DNA from: Dehalococcoidia bacterium | Lineage (GTDB): Bacteria > Chloroflexota > Dehalococcoidia > SZUA-161 > SpSt-899 | Reading direction: 5' to 3' | Length of the DNA: 64,000 nucleotides | NCBI GenBank assembly: GCA_034434815.1 | Contig: DAOTYO010000053.1 | Location: 201 to 64,200, forward strand | Part shown: piece by piece, positions 6,249 to 57,908 of the stretch | Numbering within the stretch: position 1 is the first letter of the stretch | Layout: every line of letters begins with the position of its first letter | Position numbers and translations under genes: made by a program | The notes under the pieces: generated by a model | What the model was told of the DNA's origin: nothing | The model's database searches: none | Seen by the model: the letters and a program-made list of their open reading frames with translations, nothing else

Positions 6249-6656
6249 TCATTTCACACCTTTCTTGTTCAAGAATGAGCCGTATTTCTTGTCGCTCCCT
6301 TTGATGTGCTTCTGAAGCCAATCGCTGAGGAATGCCATCACTTCTACGGAAAGGGCGGCCCTCCCTGCATCGAAGGCGCTCTTGAACTGAGAAACTTTAG
6401 CGGTAAAGGCGGCGTGCTCCCGTTTGTGGGGCGCATTTTCGGGATAGCCGAATTTCTCGAAATACTTTTCCTCTGTTTGGAAATGCGTTTGGGTGTATTC
6501 GATGAGCCCCTGCACGGTTTTCCCCAGAATCTCCTTGCCCTTTCCCATCCTCATTGCCTCATTGAGCTCGTTGATCATGCCGACGAGCTTCCGATGTTGG
6601 GCATCGATTTCAGCGATGTTCACCCGGAGGCTATCATCCCATTGGATCAAAGGCAT
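6249..6656 (-). CDS. hemerythrin-like metal-binding protein (bacteriohemerythrin)
   Basis: 135 aa; N-terminal WDDSLRVNIAEIDAQHRKL and His/Glu ligand spacing (H..H..E...H...H...D) characteristic of hemerythrin. Confidence 0.85.
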   Translation of the reverse strand: MPLIQWDDSLRVNIAEIDAQHRKLVGMINELNEAMRMGKGKEILGKTVQGLIEYTQTHFQTEEKYFEKFGYPENAPHKREHAAFTAKVSQFKSAFDAGRAALSVEVMAFLSDWLQKHIKGSDKKYGSFLNKKGVK

Positions 6657-6704
6657 TTCTTTCCTCCTGACTTCCGTCGGTTCTTTGCCCCCTTGATTGG
6701 ACCC

Positions 6705-6912
6705 CGAAACCGCGATTCCGCTTTGGAGCCTTCACCCTCATGGTGAAGGGCCTCGATCATCTCGTTCCGGACCTAGTCCCGGAATTCCCCCACACCCCAT
6801 GAACGATCCGGCTTCTCCGATCCCATCCGCCCAAAGGTTTTTGGGGGGACACCCCCCAATCCCCCCCGAGAGAAGTGTCTTGGGCACGCTTTTCTTCAAT
6901 CGCTCCTTTTGG
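6705..6912 (+). repeat. copy A of a ~205-bp repeat family (3 copies in the window)
   Basis: Shares TTGGAGCCTTCACCCTCAtgGTGAAGG hairpin, conserved CACCCCATGAACGATCCGGCTTCTCCGATCCCA core and TTCTTCAATCGCTCTTTTGG end with 24655-24864 and (reverse complement) 49903-50118. Confidence 0.75.
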
Positions 6913-6936
6913 CTTCGGGCGATCGGGTTTACGATC

Positions 6937-6955
6937 TTGACAAGTGTGCTATAAT
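6937..6955 (+). promoter_or_regulatory. candidate sigma70 promoter with extended -10 (TGcTATAAT)
   Basis: TTGACA at 6937-6942 is too close (7 bp) to be a -35, but TGCTATAAT at 6947-6955 fits an extended -10; lies ~10 bp upstream of ATG 6964. Confidence 0.3.
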
Positions 6956-6963
6956 ACTCCAAA

Positions 6964-10578: not shown

Positions 10579-11676
10579 CTAGAGATCCAGAATCTCCGTG
10601 ATCAGCTTGAACTGGTGCTCCGGTTTCGAAAGATCGATATCGTAAGGAGGATAGACCTCCTTCCCCTCGACGTCGTAGCAAACGCGCACCACCGGCCGAC
10701 CGATATGCCCGATGTTCGCGTTGGTGATGATCCCCGATTCCCGGGTGTTGAGCCGGACCATGACGCCGCTCGGGTAGACGGGCACGCGGCGCGCGAATAC
10801 CTGAACGAGCTCCGGATCGAACAACTCCCCCGCTGAGGCCATGATGCTCTCGAAGGCATCCATGGGACTGTAAGGTCTGTGCTTGGGCCGGTAGGATACG
10901 AGCTCGTAGTACGTTTCCGCCATGCCGATGATCTGCGCGATGGGGGAGATATCCCATCCCTTGGCGCCCGTGGGATAGCCGCTCCCATCCCATCGCTCGT
11001 GATGCTGAAGGATGGCTTGAACGACGGGCTTCGGGATCCGCTCGATCCGCGATAGCAATTCATACCCATATATCGGATGCTTTTCGAACTCCTTGCGATC
11101 CGCCTCCGAGAGGGAATCCTTTTCCTTCCAGACCTCCGGTCGGATCCAGATATAGCCGATGTTCTCGAGCATGGCCGCCCGGCTCACGTTGGCCAGTTCG
11201 TTCGCATCGAATCCGGCTTCCTTGGCCAGAAGAATGGCCAAGGCCGTGATCTGCACGGGCAAGAAGAATTCATAGTCCGCTATCGAGATGCATCCGGTGA
11301 GATCGGGTTCCCCCAAGGGAACTTGCAAAACGGCTTGCAGAATGGCATGTCCGAACCTCTCTACCTCGAGCCGTGCCGCGTAGATTTCCGCATCTCCCGG
11401 GTTCTTCTGATCGGGTTTGCGCTGAATGCTCAGGAGCTTGCGCATGGCCTCTGTGGCGTCTTTGTGAATTTCCGGCCGGACGAGCGGCTGAATGACGAGA
11501 TCGGAGACACGGCTGTCCTCGATGAAGAGTTCCCAGACCTCCTTCTCCCACAGGAACCCGATGTGTTTCTGCTGAAGCTCGACGTTGGCCGGCAGAAGCA
11601 TTTTCCCGTGCCGGTCGATGACCGGCTTGGCAAGCTCCATACCCACCTTCGCCTTCTCTACCGATACCCGTCGCAT
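10579..11676 (-). CDS. HD-GYP domain cyclic-di-GMP phosphodiesterase, copy 1
   Basis: 365 aa; HD motif region and HHERWDGSGYP signature; strong [12 protein letters not shown]. Confidence 0.85.
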   Translation of the reverse strand: MRRVSVEKAKVGMELAKPVIDRHGKMLLPANVELQQKHIGFLWEKEVWELFIEDSRVSDLVIQPLVRPEIHKDATEAMRKLLSIQRKPDQKNPGDAEIYAARLEVERFGHAILQAVLQVPLGEPDLTGCISIADYEFFLPVQITALAILLAKEAGFDANELANVSRAAMLENIGYIWIRPEVWKEKDSLSEADRKEFEKHPIYGYELLSRIERIPKPVVQAILQHHERWDGSGYPTGAKGWDISPIAQIIGMAETYYELVSYRPKHRPYSPMDAFESIMASAGELFDPELVQVFARRVPVYPSGVMVRLNTRESGIITNANIGHIGRPVVRVCYDVEGKEVYPPYDIDLSKPEHQFKLITEILDL

Positions 11677-11707: not shown

Positions 11708-12820
11708 TCACAAGTCCAATATCTCCTCGATCAACTTGAACTGATGTTCCGGCTCCGAGAGATCCATGTTGATGGGAGGATGCACTTCGTTCCCGAGCAC
11801 ATCGTAGCAAATACGGACCACCGGCCGGCCCACATGTCCGATGTTCACGTTGGTGATGATCCCGCGGTGTTTGGTGTTCAATCGCACCATCACCCCGCTG
11901 GGGTAGATGGGCACCCGCCGGGCGAAGATCTGCACCAACTCCGGATCGAACAGCTCCCCTGCCGAGGCCATGACTTTTTCGAAGGCATCCATGGGCGAAT
12001 ATGGCTTGCGATTCGGACGGGCGGATCTGGCCTCGTAATACGTCTCGGCGATGCCGATGATCTGGGCGATGGGGGAGATATCCCAGCCCTTGGTTCCGTT
12101 GGGGTAACCGCTCCCGTTCCACCGCTCATGATGCTGAAGCACAGCCTGAGCCACCACCGGCGGCATCCGATCCAATTTGGAAAGCGCCTCGTAGCCGTGG
12201 ATGGGATGCTTCTCGAATACCTTCTGATCCTCCGGCGAAAGCGAATCCTTGTTCTGCCAGATGTGAGGCGGAGTCCAGATATATCCGATGTTCTGGAACA
12301 TGGCCGCCCGCCCCACGTTGATCAGTTCGCTATTGGGGAAGCCGGCTTCCCGGGCCAGCAATATGGCCAGCGCCGTCATCTGTACCGGCAGAATGAACTC
12401 GAATTCCTCCACCGTAGCGCTGCCGGTCAGATCCGGTTCCCCGAGCGGAGATTTCAGAATGGATTGGACGATTGCATAGGTCAAGCGATCCACCTCGAGC
12501 CGGGCCCCGTACATCTCCGGGGCGGCAAGATCCTTCTTCTCGTTTGGGTCGCGCTTCATGGTGAGCAAGCGGCGCACCGCTTCGATGGAGTCCCTTTGCA
12601 CCTCCGGCTTGATGAGCGGCTTGATGACAAGGTCGGGAACGCGGGAGTCCTCGATGAGAAGCTCCCAGACCTCCTTCCCCTGAAGGAGCCGCAGATGGTC
12701 TTCCTTGAGCTCGATGCCGGCCGGCAGAATGGTGTGCCCGTACTTATCCATGGCCGGTCGGGCCAGCTCCAAACCGGGAGTGGCTTTTTCCACGGATACG
12801 CGACGCAAGGCCGATGTCAT
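11708..12820 (-). CDS. HD-GYP domain cyclic-di-GMP phosphodiesterase, copy 2 (tandem paralog)
   Basis: 370 aa; HHERWNGSGYP; alignable with copy 1 across its full length; possible TTG start giving MRRVSVEK as in copy 1. Confidence 0.85.
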   Translation of the reverse strand: MTSALRRVSVEKATPGLELARPAMDKYGHTILPAGIELKEDHLRLLQGKEVWELLIEDSRVPDLVIKPLIKPEVQRDSIEAVRRLLTMKRDPNEKKDLAAPEMYGARLEVDRLTYAIVQSILKSPLGEPDLTGSATVEEFEFILPVQMTALAILLAREAGFPNSELINVGRAAMFQNIGYIWTPPHIWQNKDSLSPEDQKVFEKHPIHGYEALSKLDRMPPVVAQAVLQHHERWNGSGYPNGTKGWDISPIAQIIGIAETYYEARSARPNRKPYSPMDAFEKVMASAGELFDPELVQIFARRVPIYPSGVMVRLNTKHRGIITNVNIGHVGRPVVRICYDVLGNEVHPPINMDLSEPEHQFKLIEEILDL

Positions 12821-23909: not shown

Positions 23910-24602
23910 TCACAGTGGGTGTGATTGCTTATGCCCCGGGAAGGGGATCGGGCCGTTTTCTATCCTGTGGCATTCATCGGTGAGGGATTTGAACAGCCCT
24001 ATCGTGTGGACGATCTTATCCGCGATCTCCTCGGGCGGAAGGACGAAATCCACCATTCCCGTATCTATCGCCGCTTTGGGCATGCCGAAGACGGTGCTGC
24101 TCGCCTCATCCTGTGCCAGCGTAATGGCTCCGAGTTTCTTGATGTGACGGATGCCCCTTGCGCCATCCGCACCCATGCCCGTGAGAATGACCCCGATCAC
24201 GTTGAGCTTGGGTACGGGGGAAACAGATTTCATGAGAACATCGATCGAAGGGCGAACATAGTTCACCTTTTCCCCTTCGATGAGATTGATCCGCTCGTTG
24301 TCCTTGAGCACCATGTGGAGGTCGCTCGGGGCGATCAAGATCGTGCCGTTCTCGATCGGCATGCCATCGGCCGCCAAGCAAACTTTCATCGGCGTGACCA
24401 TGGAGATGGATTTGGTGACCGAGGTGTTGATGTACCTTGGCATGTGGAGAACGATAAGGATGCAAGCGGGGACCATGGCAATCTTGGAGATCACTCGCCG
24501 CACCGTCTGGGGGCCGCCGGTCGATGCCCCGATAATGACAATGGTGTTACACTCTGCCATCTCTGTCTTTCCGAAAATAGATCCCCGATGATGCTCCGCC
24601 AA
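23910..24602 (-). CDS. CheB-type methylesterase catalytic domain protein lacking a receiver domain
   Basis: 230 aa; IVIIGASTGGPQ, HMP, GMGADG motifs of the CheB esterase domain; no N-terminal REC. Confidence 0.75.
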   Translation of the reverse strand: MAEHHRGSIFGKTEMAECNTIVIIGASTGGPQTVRRVISKIAMVPACILIVLHMPRYINTSVTKSISMVTPMKVCLAADGMPIENGTILIAPSDLHMVLKDNERINLIEGEKVNYVRPSIDVLMKSVSPVPKLNVIGVILTGMGADGARGIRHIKKLGAITLAQDEASSTVFGMPKAAIDTGMVDFVLPPEEIADKIVHTIGLFKSLTDECHRIENGPIPFPGHKQSHPL

Positions 24603-24654
24603 CCCCTACTTTTACCCGAAATCGGTGGTAAAGGTCAAGACGTCTCACCGAGCC

Positions 24655-24864
24655 AAAAAGAGCAATTCCGCTTTGGAGCCTTCACCCTCAGGTGAATAAC
24701 CATCCGATTACCTCATTCCGAACCTTGTCCCGGATTCTCCCTCACCCCATGAACGATCCGGCTTCTCCGATCCCACCCGCCCGCCCAAAAAGTTTTTTGG
24801 GGGACACCCCCAATCCCCCCGGCGGAGAGGTGTCTCTATACTCCCTTCTTCAATCGCTCTTTTG
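24655..24864 (+). repeat. copy B of the ~205-bp repeat family
   Basis: Same hairpin start (TTGGAGCCTTCACCCTCAGGTGAA), CACCCCATGAACGATCCGGCTTCTCCGATCCCA core and TTCTTCAATCGCTCTTTTGG end as copy A. Confidence 0.75.
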
Positions 24865-24984
24865 GAGACCGATTCGGTCTTCTTTGCATGGGTTCCTTTA
24901 TTCCAGCATTCAGAATCGGGCTTTGAGTTTATTCCAATATCCCTTGCTGAACCGGCGAGAAGAGCATCCGGGAGGGTCGGTCCG

Positions 24985-46023: not shown

Positions 46024-46412
46024 AGTTACTGTACCATTTTGGTGGGTTGATGAGGGGACAAAAAGACCCCCGAGAATCTCTGAGTAGTTAGGAGCAATAA
46101 CGCACGAGATTCAAGGAGGTCTGTAATGACAAGCTTGGACGAACTGAGCACGGAGATCGAGAGTTGAGGGTGGAAGGATTCAAGTCCCGATGCATCACCG
46201 CCGTATTCGAGATATCCGCATTCGAAGGCGGATGTATCGGGATCGAGATGGGAAGAGGTGCTCAAGTCCCTCGCCGCGACGCCATTGCTCAAAGGAAGCC
46301 CGTAGCGGACATGACCATAGATAAGAACCGGCCGGGATCTATGGAGACCTTCCGGCCCCCTTGATCATGGGATGCTCGGAGGTATCCATCCCCCAAAAGT
46401 TGATAGTTACGG
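46024..46412. repeat. long inverted repeat, copy 1 (~390 bp), partner at 57306-57707
   Basis: Reverse complement aligns with 57306-57707 at roughly 90-95% identity by eye, with a few 1-bp indels that break both overlapping six-frame ORFs. Confidence 0.8.
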
Positions 46413-48742: not shown

Positions 48743-49900
48743 ATGAAGAGGATCTATCTCGACCATGCCGCCACCACCCCCACCCACCCCAAGGTCATCG
48801 AGGCGATGCTTCCCTTTTTCACCGAGCGGTTCGGGAACCCTTCTAGCATCCACTCCTTCGGGCAAGAGGCGCGGGTCGCCGTGGACGAAGCCCGAGAGCA
48901 CGTGGCCGCGCTGATCGGGGCGCGCGCCGATGAGATCGTCTTCACCAGCGGCGGCACGGAGGCGGATAACTTCGCCCTCAAGGGGATTCTCTACGCCAGC
49001 GAATCCAGAGGCAACCACATTATCACCAGCCGGATCGAACACCATGCCGTGATCGAGGCCTGCAAATTCCTATCTCGGCACGGCGCCGAGATCACCTATC
49101 TTCCCGTGGATCAATACGGCCTCGTCGATCCCGATGAGGTCCGGAAGGCCATCACGCCGCGAACGGTGCTCATCTCCATCATGCACGCCAACAACGAGGT
49201 GGGCACGATCGAACCGATCGCCGAGATCGGCAAGATCGCCCGGGAACACGGGATTCCCTTCCACACCGATGCGGTGCAAACGGTCGGCCACATTCCGATC
49301 GACGTGAACGAACTGAATGTGGACCTTCTGGCCGTCTCCGCCCACAAGCTCTACGGGCCGAAGGGGGTGGGGGCGCTCTACGTTCGCAAGGGAACGAAGA
49401 TCGTCCCGTTTCTGCATGGTGGTGAGCAGGAGCGCCGGAGGCGGGCCGGTACGGAAAACGTGCCGGGGATTGTGGGATTGGGGAAAGCCGCTCAGCTCGC
49501 CCGGGCGGAACTGGAAAAGGAAATGAACCGGCTGATCCCCCTTCGCAACCGGCTCATCGAGGGGCTCAGGGCCCGCATTGAATACCTCACCCTGAACGGG
49601 CATCCCACACAGCGCCTTCCCAACAACGTGAACGTGTCCATGGACTTCATCGAAGGGGAATCGGTGATCATCAATCTGGATCTGGCAGGCATTGCCGCAT
49701 CCACCGGATCGGCCTGCAGCTCCGCGGATGCCGAACCCTCTCACGTGTTACTCGCTCTGGGCATCCCGCGCCCGCGGGCGCACAGCTCCGTTCGTTTCAC
49801 CTTGGGCCGGGACACAACTCCAGAGGAAATCGAGCAGGTCATCGAGATTCTGCCCCCCATCGTATCACGTCTGAGGGCCATGTCCCCACTGCTCAAATAA
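48743..49900 (+). CDS. cysteine desulfurase (NifS/IscS class, PLP-dependent)
   Basis: Start at MKRIYLDHAATTP (frame taken from the ORF track; my base count near 48720 is off by 1); PLP lysine region SAHKLYGPKG; catalytic Cys loop ASTGSACSS. Confidence 0.9.
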   Translation: MKRIYLDHAATTPTHPKVIEAMLPFFTERFGNPSSIHSFGQEARVAVDEAREHVAALIGARADEIVFTSGGTEADNFALKGILYASESRGNHIITSRIEHHAVIEACKFLSRHGAEITYLPVDQYGLVDPDEVRKAITPRTVLISIMHANNEVGTIEPIAEIGKIAREHGIPFHTDAVQTVGHIPIDVNELNVDLLAVSAHKLYGPKGVGALYVRKGTKIVPFLHGGEQERRRRAGTENVPGIVGLGKAAQLARAELEKEMNRLIPLRNRLIEGLRARIEYLTLNGHPTQRLPNNVNVSMDFIEGESVIINLDLAGIAASTGSACSSADAEPSHVLLALGIPRPRAHSSVRFTLGRDTTPEEIEQVIEILPPIVSRLRAMSPLLK

Positions 49901-49902
49901 TC

Positions 49903-50118
49903 CCAAAAACAGCGATTGAAGAATAGAGTGCACAAGATACCACTCTCGGGGGATTGGGGGTGTCCTCCAAGAAAACCCTTTGGGCGGGTGGGTGGGATGG
50001 GAGAAGCCGGATCGTTCATGGGGTGTGGGGGAATTCCGGGACAAGGTCCGTAGTGAGGTGATCAAGGTCATTCACCCTGAGGGTGAAGGCTCCAAAGGGG
50101 AATCGTCTTTTCGGAATA
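49903..50118 (-). repeat. copy C of the ~205-bp repeat family (reverse orientation)
   Basis: Reverse complement carries the TTGGAGCCTTCACCCTCAGGGTGAA hairpin, CACCCCATGAACGATCCGGCTTCTCCCATCCCA core and TTCTTCAATCGCTGTTTTTGG end. Confidence 0.75.
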
Positions 50119-55111: not shown

Positions 55112-55768
55112 TCAATCGAACCATTCCCTATCCGATGGGTCGATGCCGGTGGCAAGCACATTCTCGCGATCCAGATGCCACCGGAGAGGATTGGTCATGA
55201 TATATTCACGGATGCGGTCCAGCGAATCCTCGTTTCGGATGACGTGTTCGTAATAGTTGCGTTGCCAGACGGGTGTCCCCGGCATGCCGCGGCGTTCATT
55301 GATGCGTTTGGCGGCGGCGGATTTGAACCCGGCAATAAACGATGACAACGATCGTTTGGCGGGTCCCCGCGGTTGTTCTTGTAGGGGCGACCGGCCGGTC
55401 GCCCCTACGCCGGTCGCCCCTACGCCGGTCGCCCCTACGCCGGTCGCCCCTACGCCGGTCGCCCCTACGCCGGTCGCCCCTACACCGGTGGATTCCATAA
55501 TCCACACGATGCCATGAATATGATTGGGCATCACCACGAATTCATCGGCAAACAATTCGATTTCTCGACGGATGTCCGCCGAACGAAACCATTCCTCCCG
55601 CACGATGAAGCCGTATTCATTCAACCGCATTTCCCCATCCACCACCTCACCGAAAAGGTGTTCGCGGTCTTGCGTGCAGAGGGTCACAAAATAGGCACCC
55701 GCTTGCGTGTAATCGTATCCCCTCAGGCGGATGGTGTGGCGGTGATGTTTCTCAGGATCGTACCGCAT
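55112..55768 (-). CDS. REP-associated tyrosine transposase (RAYT, IS200/IS605 TnpA-like) carrying an in-frame (GVGAT)x6 repeat insertion
   Basis: Start at MRYDPEKHHRH; HuH motif VMPNHIHGIV and catalytic Tyr region WQRNYYEHVIRNEDSLDRIREYI; the 40-aa insert between them is encoded by the tandem 15-bp repeat; the upstream part of ORF 55112-56485 is read-through. Confidence 0.75.
   Translation of the reverse strand: MRYDPEKHHRHTIRLRGYDYTQAGAYFVTLCTQDREHLFGEVVDGEMRLNEYGFIVREEWFRSADIRREIELFADEFVVMPNHIHGIVWIMESTGVGATGVGATGVGATGVGATGVGATGVGATGRSPLQEQPRGPAKRSLSSFIAGFKSAAAKRINERRGMPGTPVWQRNYYEHVIRNEDSLDRIREYIMTNPLRWHLDRENVLATGIDPSDREWFD
55381..55484. repeat. REP-like palindrome GTAGGGGCGACCGGCCGGTCGCCCCTAC followed by 6 tandem copies of 15-bp unit CCGGTCGCCCCTACG
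   Basis: Perfect 28-bp palindrome at 55381-55408 whose right arm is reiterated 6 times to 55484 (last unit ...CTACA); lies inside the RAYT coding sequence, in frame. Confidence 0.8.
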
Positions 55769-55831
55769 CGCTACGCCGTCCTCGCCTTCCCCAACCGAAT
55801 AGGGGGCCGGTTCGCGTTCCAGGGGCGGTTC

Positions 55832-55853
55832 GCGAATTGCCCCTTCTTCCACG
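55832..55853. repeat. REP-like imperfect palindrome GGGGCGGTTCGCGAATTGCCCC
   Basis: Near-identical to the central part of the 55016 palindrome; lies ~65 bp upstream of the RAYT start, preceded by a second GGGGGCCGGTTCGCG motif. Confidence 0.55.
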
Positions 55854-55940
55854 ATTTTGACCTTCTCCGGGGTCAGGCTGTAGAGGCGATAGACCCCTTC
55901 ATCAATCTCAAAAGACGTACGCCCCGAAGCTCGATCATCC

Positions 55941-56711
55941 CTATGGAATGGGGGAAAGGAGTTCCTCGATCGTAGGGCAATCCGGGGGCCACCGGCCGGT
56001 TTCCTTGAGCCATTCCCGCTCGCGGTGAACAATTTCAGAGAGAGGCGGCAGGGTATCCTGCAGGGGAGCAACATGTTCAAATCGAGCATGGAGACTCTGA
56101 AGCACTCCCCGGTAGCATGCCAGCGGATCCAATCGGGCAAGAAGCCGCGAGAAGCCCTCTTCATCGGGTTCCCACCGGACTTTGATTTCTGCCAGAAGCG
56201 CCTCGGCTTCTGAAGCCAGTTGAACCGAAAGCATCCCAGAGGGGAAGGTAACTCCAAGAACGGGCGCCTCTGAACGGATCTCGTAGATCGTTCTATCCGG
56301 GATGAAACTCGCCCTGAGCTCCCCCCCGAAGGAAAAGAAGGCAATGCGCCGATCGGATCGCTCGCAAAGGACAATTCGCCCGGCGCAGACAAAGGCGGGG
56401 CTCTCCACTTCGCCTCTCCAGCGCAACATCCGCCACGATGCCATCTGCGCCTCATCCCGGAGGCAGAGATATAACGTCTCGGCACCCGAGCCGGAATCGA
56501 TGGGGAAAGGATGCAACGTAACGGTCAGCCCACCAAACCCGGGACTTCCCGGATGCGGTCGAGGTAACACCGCATAGCATTGGCCTTCCCCGTCAGAATT
56601 CTCAGACCACCATTGAGCCATCGGCAGTACTCCGCAATCGGCATAATGCCGGGAGAAATGGGGGCCCATCACCCGAATGATCCGGAACTGCCCTTCCCTT
56701 CCGGAATCCAT
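55941..56711 (-). CDS. hypothetical protein (256 aa)
   Basis: ATG overlaps the stop of the upstream membrane-protein gene (TAATG), which suggests translational coupling; no recognised motif; competes with the spurious N-terminal extension of the RAYT ORF. Confidence 0.45.
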   Translation of the reverse strand: MDSGREGQFRIIRVMGPHFSRHYADCGVLPMAQWWSENSDGEGQCYAVLPRPHPGSPGFGGLTVTLHPFPIDSGSGAETLYLCLRDEAQMASWRMLRWRGEVESPAFVCAGRIVLCERSDRRIAFFSFGGELRASFIPDRTIYEIRSEAPVLGVTFPSGMLSVQLASEAEALLAEIKVRWEPDEEGFSRLLARLDPLACYRGVLQSLHARFEHVAPLQDTLPPLSEIVHREREWLKETGRWPPDCPTIEELLSPIP

Positions 56712-57305: not shown

Positions 57306-57707
57306 CCTTCGGGAGTGTAACTTTCAACTTTTGGGGGATGGATACCTCCGAGCATCCCATAATCAAGGGGGCCGGAAGGCCTCCATAGATCCCGGCCGGT
57401 TCTTAATCTATGGTCATGTCCGCTACGGGCTTCCTTTGAGCAATGGCGTCACGGCGAGGGACTTGAGCACCTCTTCCCATCTCGATCCCGATACATCCGC
57501 CTTCGAATGCGGATATCCTCGAATACGGCGGTGATGGATCGGGACTTGAATCCTTCCACCCTCAGCCCTCGAACTCCGTGCTCAGTTCGTCCAAGCTTGT
57601 CATTACAGACCCCCCTTGAATCTCGTGCGTTATTGCTCCTAACTACTCAGAGATTCTCGGGGGTCTTTTTGTCCCCTCATCAACCCACCAAGATGGTACA
57701 GTAACCG
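57306..57707. repeat. long inverted repeat, copy 2 (~400 bp), partner of 46024-46412
   Basis: Aligns with the reverse complement of 46024-46412; indels relative to copy 1 shift the reading frame of the overlapping ORFs (57253-57534 / 57507-57704 versus the single ORF 46026-46292). Confidence 0.8.
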
Positions 57708-57908
57708 AGCCTCAGTGACTTGATAATGGTTATTCACTCCGAGAGTAAAGGCTACAAAGCAGAATCGCTCTTTTTGGAGAGACCCGATAAATTGACGTCG
57801 GCAAAGCGATTTGCTATATTTACAGCGGTTGTGTTTTGCGGCCCCACGTCTGGACTCAGATTTGTAGCGCCAGATTCAAAACACCTATCGAGAGAAGGAG
57901 GAAAAGAA

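Follow-up and report, generated by a model that had tools for sequence, protein, structure and literature searches.

The window, i.e. the whole 64 kb stretch of DNA analysed here, carries a repeated intergenic sequence for which a sequence-only reading had left two candidates, a mobile miniature element and a family of small-RNA genes. Two questions follow from this locus: which kind of sequence the repeat is, and why its copies lie where they do. The three copies which that reading had described were borne out with refined limits. It contained neither the terminal inverted repeats (TIRs) nor the duplications at the insertion sites, the fixed spacing to flanking promoters or the fourth copy.

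Anatomy, copy number and mobility of the repeat

The repeat family is a non-coding, MITE-like element of ~215 bp per copy. Full-length copies span 206-220 bp, below the ~600 bp limit for MITEs, and hold no consistent ORF. An alignment of 40 distinct copies places TIRs of 16 bp at their ends, CCCCAAAAGAGCGATT on the left and AATCGCTCTTTTTGGG on the right, and over the inner 12 positions 88% of the cells in these 40 copies pair. The consensus hairpin TTCACCC-TCA-GGGTGAA, the shared core and the terminal TTCTTCAATCGCT(C)TTTTGG are all present. The hairpin with which every copy had been said to start is real, but the start itself lies ~25 nt earlier, at the TIR, and the 'TTCTTCAATCGCTCTTTTGG' ending is the matching right TIR. 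Within the window, the following features were assigned:

6702-6913, plus strand: MITE-like element, copy A, 212 bp
6702-6717: left TIR of copy A, CCCCGAAACCGCGATT
6898-6913: right TIR of copy A, AATCGCTCCTTTTGGC
24652-24867, plus strand: MITE-like element, copy B, 216 bp
24647-24651 and 24868-24872: duplication ACCGA (5 bp) flanking copy B
49901-50114, minus strand: MITE-like element, copy C, 214 bp, between two convergent genes
50119-50115 and 49900-49896: duplication TTATT (minus strand) flanking copy C
57706-57779, minus strand: MITE-like element, truncated copy D, found by the family HMM; only the 5' ~74 nt, i.e. the 5' TIR and ~58 nt

Pairwise identity among the window copies is 76-81%, and the 26-mer CACCCCATGAACGATCCGGCTTCTCC is exact in copies A, B and C, with 0 occurrences expected by chance. 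Copy D ends where an unrelated repeat of ~390 nt (57317-57705) starts. Two independent ENA assemblies contain copy A at 99.9% identity, so that it is no assembly artefact; a clear target-site duplication was not found at its ends. This copy had been placed after a hemerythrin gene, a position that has to be corrected, as the gene is on the minus strand and its start codon is 48 nt away from the element, which lies upstream of the gene in the spacer of a divergent pair. Between the hemerythrin start and the 5' end of copy A (6656-6701), as well as inside the element, no sigma-70-like promoter is present, so that hemerythrin would be transcribed through or from beyond copy A, or from another type of promoter. 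The duplication at copy C includes the TAA stop codon (49898-49900) of a class-V aminotransferase/cysteine desulfurase gene, and the insertion thus spared this gene.

As the sequence-only reading had supposed, the short ORFs across the copies ('MNDPASPIP...') do not code: indels of 4 nt (ACCC) and of 1-2 nt break the frame in many copies and leave no frame intact across all of them, and a protein-coding function was rejected. The (ACCC)n tract inside the element (alignment A2, columns 128-139) changes in 4-nt steps between copies, like a small microsatellite.

Outside the window, a core 20-mer matched 40 loci on JGI metagenome contigs, mostly from two samples. The organism itself occurs in JGI 3300009503 and in ENA ERZ27247228 and ERZ27247235. 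A search with nhmmer and a seed HMM gave 65 matches at a cut-off of E <= 1e-3 in 383 kb of fetched metagenome DNA plus the window, many of them without the exact probe; 61 remain once chance and short-fragment ones are excluded. Among these related metagenome sequences are 47 distinct complete copies. The unrelated contexts noted for the first three copies are a general property of the family, which occupies 46 independent loci once duplicates are removed and has three full copies and one partial copy in the 64 kb of the window. Mean pairwise identity between 40 distinct full-length copies is 78% (range 63-91%), most copies coming from metagenome assemblies in which chimerism inside repeats is possible. 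Because dozens of copies have diverged to this mean identity, the family is, judged by its sequences, abundant and old.

The shared core, although present, owes part of its apparent invariance to ascertainment: 13 copies were recovered independently of the probe, and there its conservation is 87-90%, no higher than that of the remainder of the element. The 26-mer was considered as a selected binding site and rejected, since its invariance vanishes in the copies found without the 20-mer probe. In the species-representative genome set the core 20-mer has one chance match only, in a coding region of Silvibacterium. Viral contigs gave 0 matches to this 20-mer and 41 single matches to a 15-mer of the TIR, none fitting the element HMM, and a distant blastn search of plasmids gave no match to the element. 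The nearest named homologues of two flanking proteins are in Chloroflexota/Dehalococcoidia MAGs, at 41-64% identity.

Some observations concern the assemblies themselves. On three contigs (L044-L046) the assembly breaks fall exactly inside the element, as expected for a repeat. Two orthologous loci from two metagenomes (L014 9976-10189 and L017 7499-7707) match at 100% identity in the 300 nt flanking the element on either side but at only 92% in the elements themselves; this mismatch points to either gene conversion or chimeric assembly within the repeat, and is a caveat for any within-element analysis. Inverted neighbouring copies ~3 kb apart occur twice (L010 5826-6042 and 8867-9079; L038 3261-3440 and 6740-6920). 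These pairs share subfamily-specific variants, e.g. the TIR AAAAGCGGCGATCCC, which suggests local hopping or gene conversion between the neighbours.

Evidence of mobility comes from the insertion sites. The check for insertion-site duplications that had been proposed for this repeat gave a direct repeat of at least 4 nt abutting the element in 33 of 41 copies, and of at least 5 nt in 27. In a test for 5-mer duplications with at most one mismatch, 18 of the 41 copies were positive, whereas permuted flanks gave 1.2 on average and 5 at most. Examples are TTTTCC, TTTCGA, CTTTAC, GCCGT, TCTTG and TGAGA. The duplications are mostly 5-6 bp long and in some copies 7-9 bp; the exact length is ambiguous (5-9 bp) because the element ends are runs of C or G. 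At the loci matching copies A and B in relatives the element is absent and the adjacent promoters are conserved, these 'empty' loci being those of relatives at ~80% protein identity (80-82%) with diverged upstream spacers. Queries made of joined flanks found no strain-level empty site in all fetched DNA.

A search of the window, of the 383 kb of fetched loci, of plasmids and of viral contigs gave no autonomous partner sharing the TIRs, and TIR occurrences beyond the copies are chance matches only. Inverted repeats 600-3500 bp apart were considered as a possible autonomous element and rejected, as they are pairs of neighbouring MITE copies; the genes between such paired copies are housekeeping genes (Nnr/YjeF, peptidyl-tRNA hydrolase, enoyl-CoA hydratase, rhomboid) and include no transposases. 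Many accepted MITE families have no known autonomous partner, and the missing partner is therefore not disqualifying. Based on the TIRs, the target-site duplications, the dozens of dispersed copies and the absence from orthologous sites of relatives, we assign the repeat with high confidence to the MITEs, as a non-autonomous DNA transposon family. The first of the two earlier candidates, the mobile miniature element, is hereby retained.

The second one, a small-RNA gene family or structured RNA in which each copy gives its own ~200-nt transcript with a 5' hairpin and a 3' terminator, is very improbable. The consensus does contain several hairpins, and a hand-drawn five-helix model, consisting of the terminal pairing and four internal hairpins, pairs in 84% of the cells. 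However, the observed pairing of 84.3% compares to 84.5% in 500 column shuffles, 398 of which reach the observed value, and the covariation score is 0.105 versus 0.106 in the shuffles, so that the covariation check suggested earlier reveals no conserved fold above shuffled controls. The RNAalifold consensus is weak (-12.2 kcal/mol, with a covariation term of -0.36) and the folding z-scores are unremarkable (-0.59 for copy C and -2.18 for copy A), even if several one-sided C-to-T changes in hairpin 1 retain G-U pairs. A search of Rfam, likewise suggested, gave no match for the whole window at the gathering threshold nor for copy A at a permissive threshold. As to transcription, an internal sigma-70-like promoter is present in just 2 of 40 copies, a weak terminator-like site in copy A (6875-6887) has no consistent counterpart across copies A-C, and no orientation bias is seen. 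The dispersal of the copies is already accounted for by the TIRs and duplications.

The position of the copies could also bring to mind dispersed intrinsic terminators or REP-like extragenic palindromes which stabilise or end upstream transcripts. The copies are intergenic, some of them directly past gene ends (copy C lies 1 nt after a stop codon), and the consensus has GC-rich hairpins; yet a canonical stem with a U-tract is lacking, the T-run being 12 nt from the nearest stem, and the copies occur in both orientations relative to the neighbouring genes. In a terminator scan, copies A and B each gave one weak site, the two not being at homologous positions, and copy C gave none. The terminator once suggested for the family is accordingly a weak proposal, and what had been reported as a 'compensated stem' in copy C is a consensus stem lengthened by a change on one side only. 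REPs are 20-40 nt long, lack duplications and are moved by RAYT (IS200/IS605-like) enzymes. REP, BIME and REPIN sequences resemble the present family as abundant intergenic palindromic repeats, whereas an element of ~215 bp with TIRs and duplications does not fit them. We consider such a function highly unlikely.

Promoters flanking the element

The flanks of the copies answer the second question in part. Sigma-70-type promoters that point away from the element were recognised at 28 of 44 independent loci, the -35 hexamer starting 13 nt (±1) past the element end; these promoters are consensus matches rather than mapped transcription starts. The promoter adjoins the 3' end only at 15 loci, the 5' end only at 12 and both ends at one, while 16 loci have none at the canonical offset. 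Counted by flank and at a sigma-70 match of at least 9/12, 30 of 92 have the -35 start at offsets 14-21 from the anchor and all other 8-nt bins hold 0-3; inward-reading promoters are essentially absent from these 92 flanks. At offset 17 or 18, 29 of 90 flanks have the trinucleotide TTG, whose frequency elsewhere is ~1.5 per offset. A -10 match of at least 4/6 accompanies it in 27 of 36 such flanks, against a background of 10% at random offsets, and an extended -10 G is visible once the flanks are aligned on the -35.

In this alignment the final G of the TIR falls at -14, leaving 13 nt between element and hexamer, of which the duplication fills roughly the first five. Otherwise, the stretch that separates the element from the -35 shows neither conserved sequence nor an AT-rich signal in the aligned flanks. 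Of the 29 promoter-bearing flanks, 19 have an SD-led ORF within the next 300 nt, compared to 27 of the 61 other flanks, and some of the remaining promoter-bearing flanks run into tRNA-like sequences. Relative to the promoter next to it, the element has no preferred orientation.

In the window, copies A, B and D conform to this spacing. Copy C is the exception, with no promoter on either side. The flanking promoters are:

6928-6955, plus strand: promoter flanking copy A, TTTACG, 16 nt, TGcTATAAT; -35 located 14 nt past the element end
24609-24638, minus strand: promoter flanking copy B, TTGACC (24638-24633), 18 nt, TAAAAG (24614-24609)
57792-57820, plus strand: promoter flanking copy D, TTGACG, 17 nt, TATATT

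The first of these is predicted to drive a 186-aa gene starting at 6963. The second has its -35 located 13 nt beyond the 5' end of copy B and is predicted to drive a CheB-domain gene (ATG at 24560). The third, with its -35 located 12-13 nt beyond the 5' TIR of copy D, reads toward a thiolase/ChsH2-like gene. The ATG at 6963 lies only 7 nt after the TATAAT, and the mRNA of the gene downstream of copy A is for that reason probably leaderless; the same arrangement is kept in a relative (L049).

Relatives also indicate which came first, promoter or element. Two of them (L047 and L048) carry CheB homologues with 80-82% identity to the CheB of the window, and their spacer between the response-regulator gene and CheB is ~113 bp long and lacks the element. 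The block GAGACGTC-TTGACC-...-TAAAAG-TA.GGGTTG is conserved in the window and in both relatives, and in the window it begins exactly past the element and its duplication. Similarly, the L049 homologue of the gene downstream of copy A (81% identity) has no element upstream and keeps both the TTGTAC-16-TATAATACTCCAAATG promoter and the gene start. The conservation of these predicted promoters in relatives without the element shows that those at copies A and B pre-dated the insertions.

Proposed target choice and its alternatives

The fixed spacing suggests promoter-guided insertion. A MITE family that integrates preferentially at a fixed distance upstream of promoters is the best explanation for the observed anatomy, copy number, duplications and spacing, and we consider it probable; counted against it are the 16 of 44 loci without a promoter at the canonical offset and the failure to find an autonomous partner. 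We infer that target choice rather than selection sets the spacing, this being the simplest explanation.

In the proposed mechanism, a DDE-type transposase encoded elsewhere (none was found here) would bind the TIRs, make a staggered cut in the target and paste the element in. The preferred targets of this machinery would be pre-existing promoters of the sigma-70 type, with 13 nt left between the element end and the -35 downstream of it. Counted from the transcription start, the staggered cuts would then fall at about -50 and -45. The element could enter either way round and would leave the core promoter intact; that both orientations are used equally is in keeping with a symmetric transposition complex. 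The internal hairpins would be decaying ancestral features and not a maintained RNA fold. Because -10 elements accompany the -35 far above chance, the cue looks like the whole promoter, most simply the bound RNA polymerase holoenzyme, rather than the -35 sequence alone. A narrower proposal, which we make tentatively as one possible route, is that the RNA polymerase holoenzyme occupying the promoter, or sigma-70 itself, serves the transposase as a molecular ruler, which would lead to integration at about -50/-45, just beyond the upstream edge of the polymerase footprint, at any sigma-70 promoter.

Another possibility might be that the element is an exapted regulatory module, i.e. that insertion is essentially random and that copies survive or are favoured where they help the adjacent promoter. 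The benefits proposed are an UP element formed by the T-tract of the TIR, which lands at about -52 to -56 and could have such an UP-element-like action, a class-I activator site in the TIR, and insulation from read-through. Because of the symmetric TIRs, CTCTTTTTGGG is equally far from the -35 whichever way the element faces, in keeping with the absence of orientation bias, and the lengths are fairly uniform (206-220 bp) despite a mutual divergence of ~22%. However, random insertion followed by selection predicts a broad or helically phased spread, not a spike of ±1 nt with near-empty bins around it, and 28 independent events at the exact position would need an enormous number of random insertions. 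Purifying selection alike predicts a boundary at the -35 rather than this spike. Moreover, the promoter-proximal end of the element is no better conserved than the distal end, promoter-adjacent copies are no better conserved than other copies, and the promoters of the relatives lack an AT-rich upstream region that would need replacement. We therefore regard a regulatory module as an unlikely source of the spacing.

A MITE alone would be ordinary. What neither the MITE review (PMC10969869) nor the literature searched describes is a bacterial transposon family that adjoins dozens of unrelated promoters, with its copies 13 ±1 nt ahead of the -35 and in both orientations. If target choice holds, the family would be a bacterial case of 'safe-haven' integration analogous to that of eukaryotic retrotransposons (Ty3, TRE5-A), and would imply that promoters or RNA polymerase are read by its transposase or by an accessory factor. 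Promoter-upstream positions could then be marked or engineered independently of sequence, and the copies would annotate promoters of an uncultivated lineage at no extra cost. Should the ruler proposal be true, it would offer a natural system for placing DNA at a defined promoter-upstream position without disruption. If selection were responsible instead, the family would exemplify how a MITE can distribute an upstream promoter module over a genome.

Known systems and other repeats in the window

Integration at a fixed place relative to a transcription unit is known from eukaryotes, with Ty3 inserting at Pol III start sites, TRE5-A of Dictyostelium ~48 bp upstream of tRNA genes and Tf1 of S. 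pombe at Pol II promoters. The present family shares with these the fixed short distance upstream of a transcription unit and the 'safe haven' in a compact genome. In contrast, these three are retroelements that find their sites through known contacts with eukaryotic transcription factors, and the family described here is a putative bacterial element of the cut-and-paste type. Tn7 uses TnsD and attTn7 for insertion at one site per genome and in one orientation. With Tn7 and other selector-guided transposons the family has in common a fixed distance from a recognised DNA feature and the irrelevance of the sequence at the insertion point. It differs in using many sites (any sigma-70-type promoter) and both orientations, and no selector protein is known for it. 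Ty3, TRE5-A, Tf1 and Tn7 are the nearest analogies, and these are functional ones.

Among MITEs, the Correia elements of Neisseria (NEMIS/CREE) are 100-155 bp long and duplicate TA. They lie conspicuously just upstream of genes, are tied to promoter activity and bring their own promoter parts (PMC10969869). The element studied here, on the other hand, lacks an internal promoter in 38 of 40 copies and adjoins complete, older host promoters. Bacterial MITEs, e.g. MITEAba12, RUP, ERIC and Nezha, have been reviewed (PMC10969869). As in those, the copies are short, non-coding, multi-copy and mostly intergenic, with TIRs and duplications and a transposase acting in trans; unlike them, the element has no sequence similarity in Rfam, plasmids or viral contigs, and its parent IS was not found. 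Neither this review (PMC10969869) nor the full-text literature searched describes a MITE with a fixed spacing to sigma-70 promoters.

Besides the MITE copies, the window holds a second, unrelated repeat of ~390 nt, present at 46025-46410 (plus strand) and, inverted, at 57317-57705. Its two copies are 95-99% identical and bracket a segment of 10.9 kb. The repeat starts with GTTACTGTACCAT and ends with ...AGTTGA(T/A)AGTTAC, GTTAC being present at both boundaries, and it contains T-loop-like GGATTCAAGTCC motifs. A search of Rfam gave no match to it. The copy near 57 kb abuts and truncates MITE copy D. Possible identities of this repeat are a structured RNA and a non-autonomous element that was active until recently; as a guess, its boundaries might reflect an IS200/IS605-like TTAC target.

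In addition, the 15-nt unit GCCGGTCGCCCCTAC is repeated about seven times in tandem at 55379-55498, within a long ORF on the minus strand (55112-56485). Finally, between 10586-11043 and 11715-12172, segments of 149 and 300 nt are repeated 1129 nt apart with 77-78% identity, and these are probably parts of adjacent paralogous genes.
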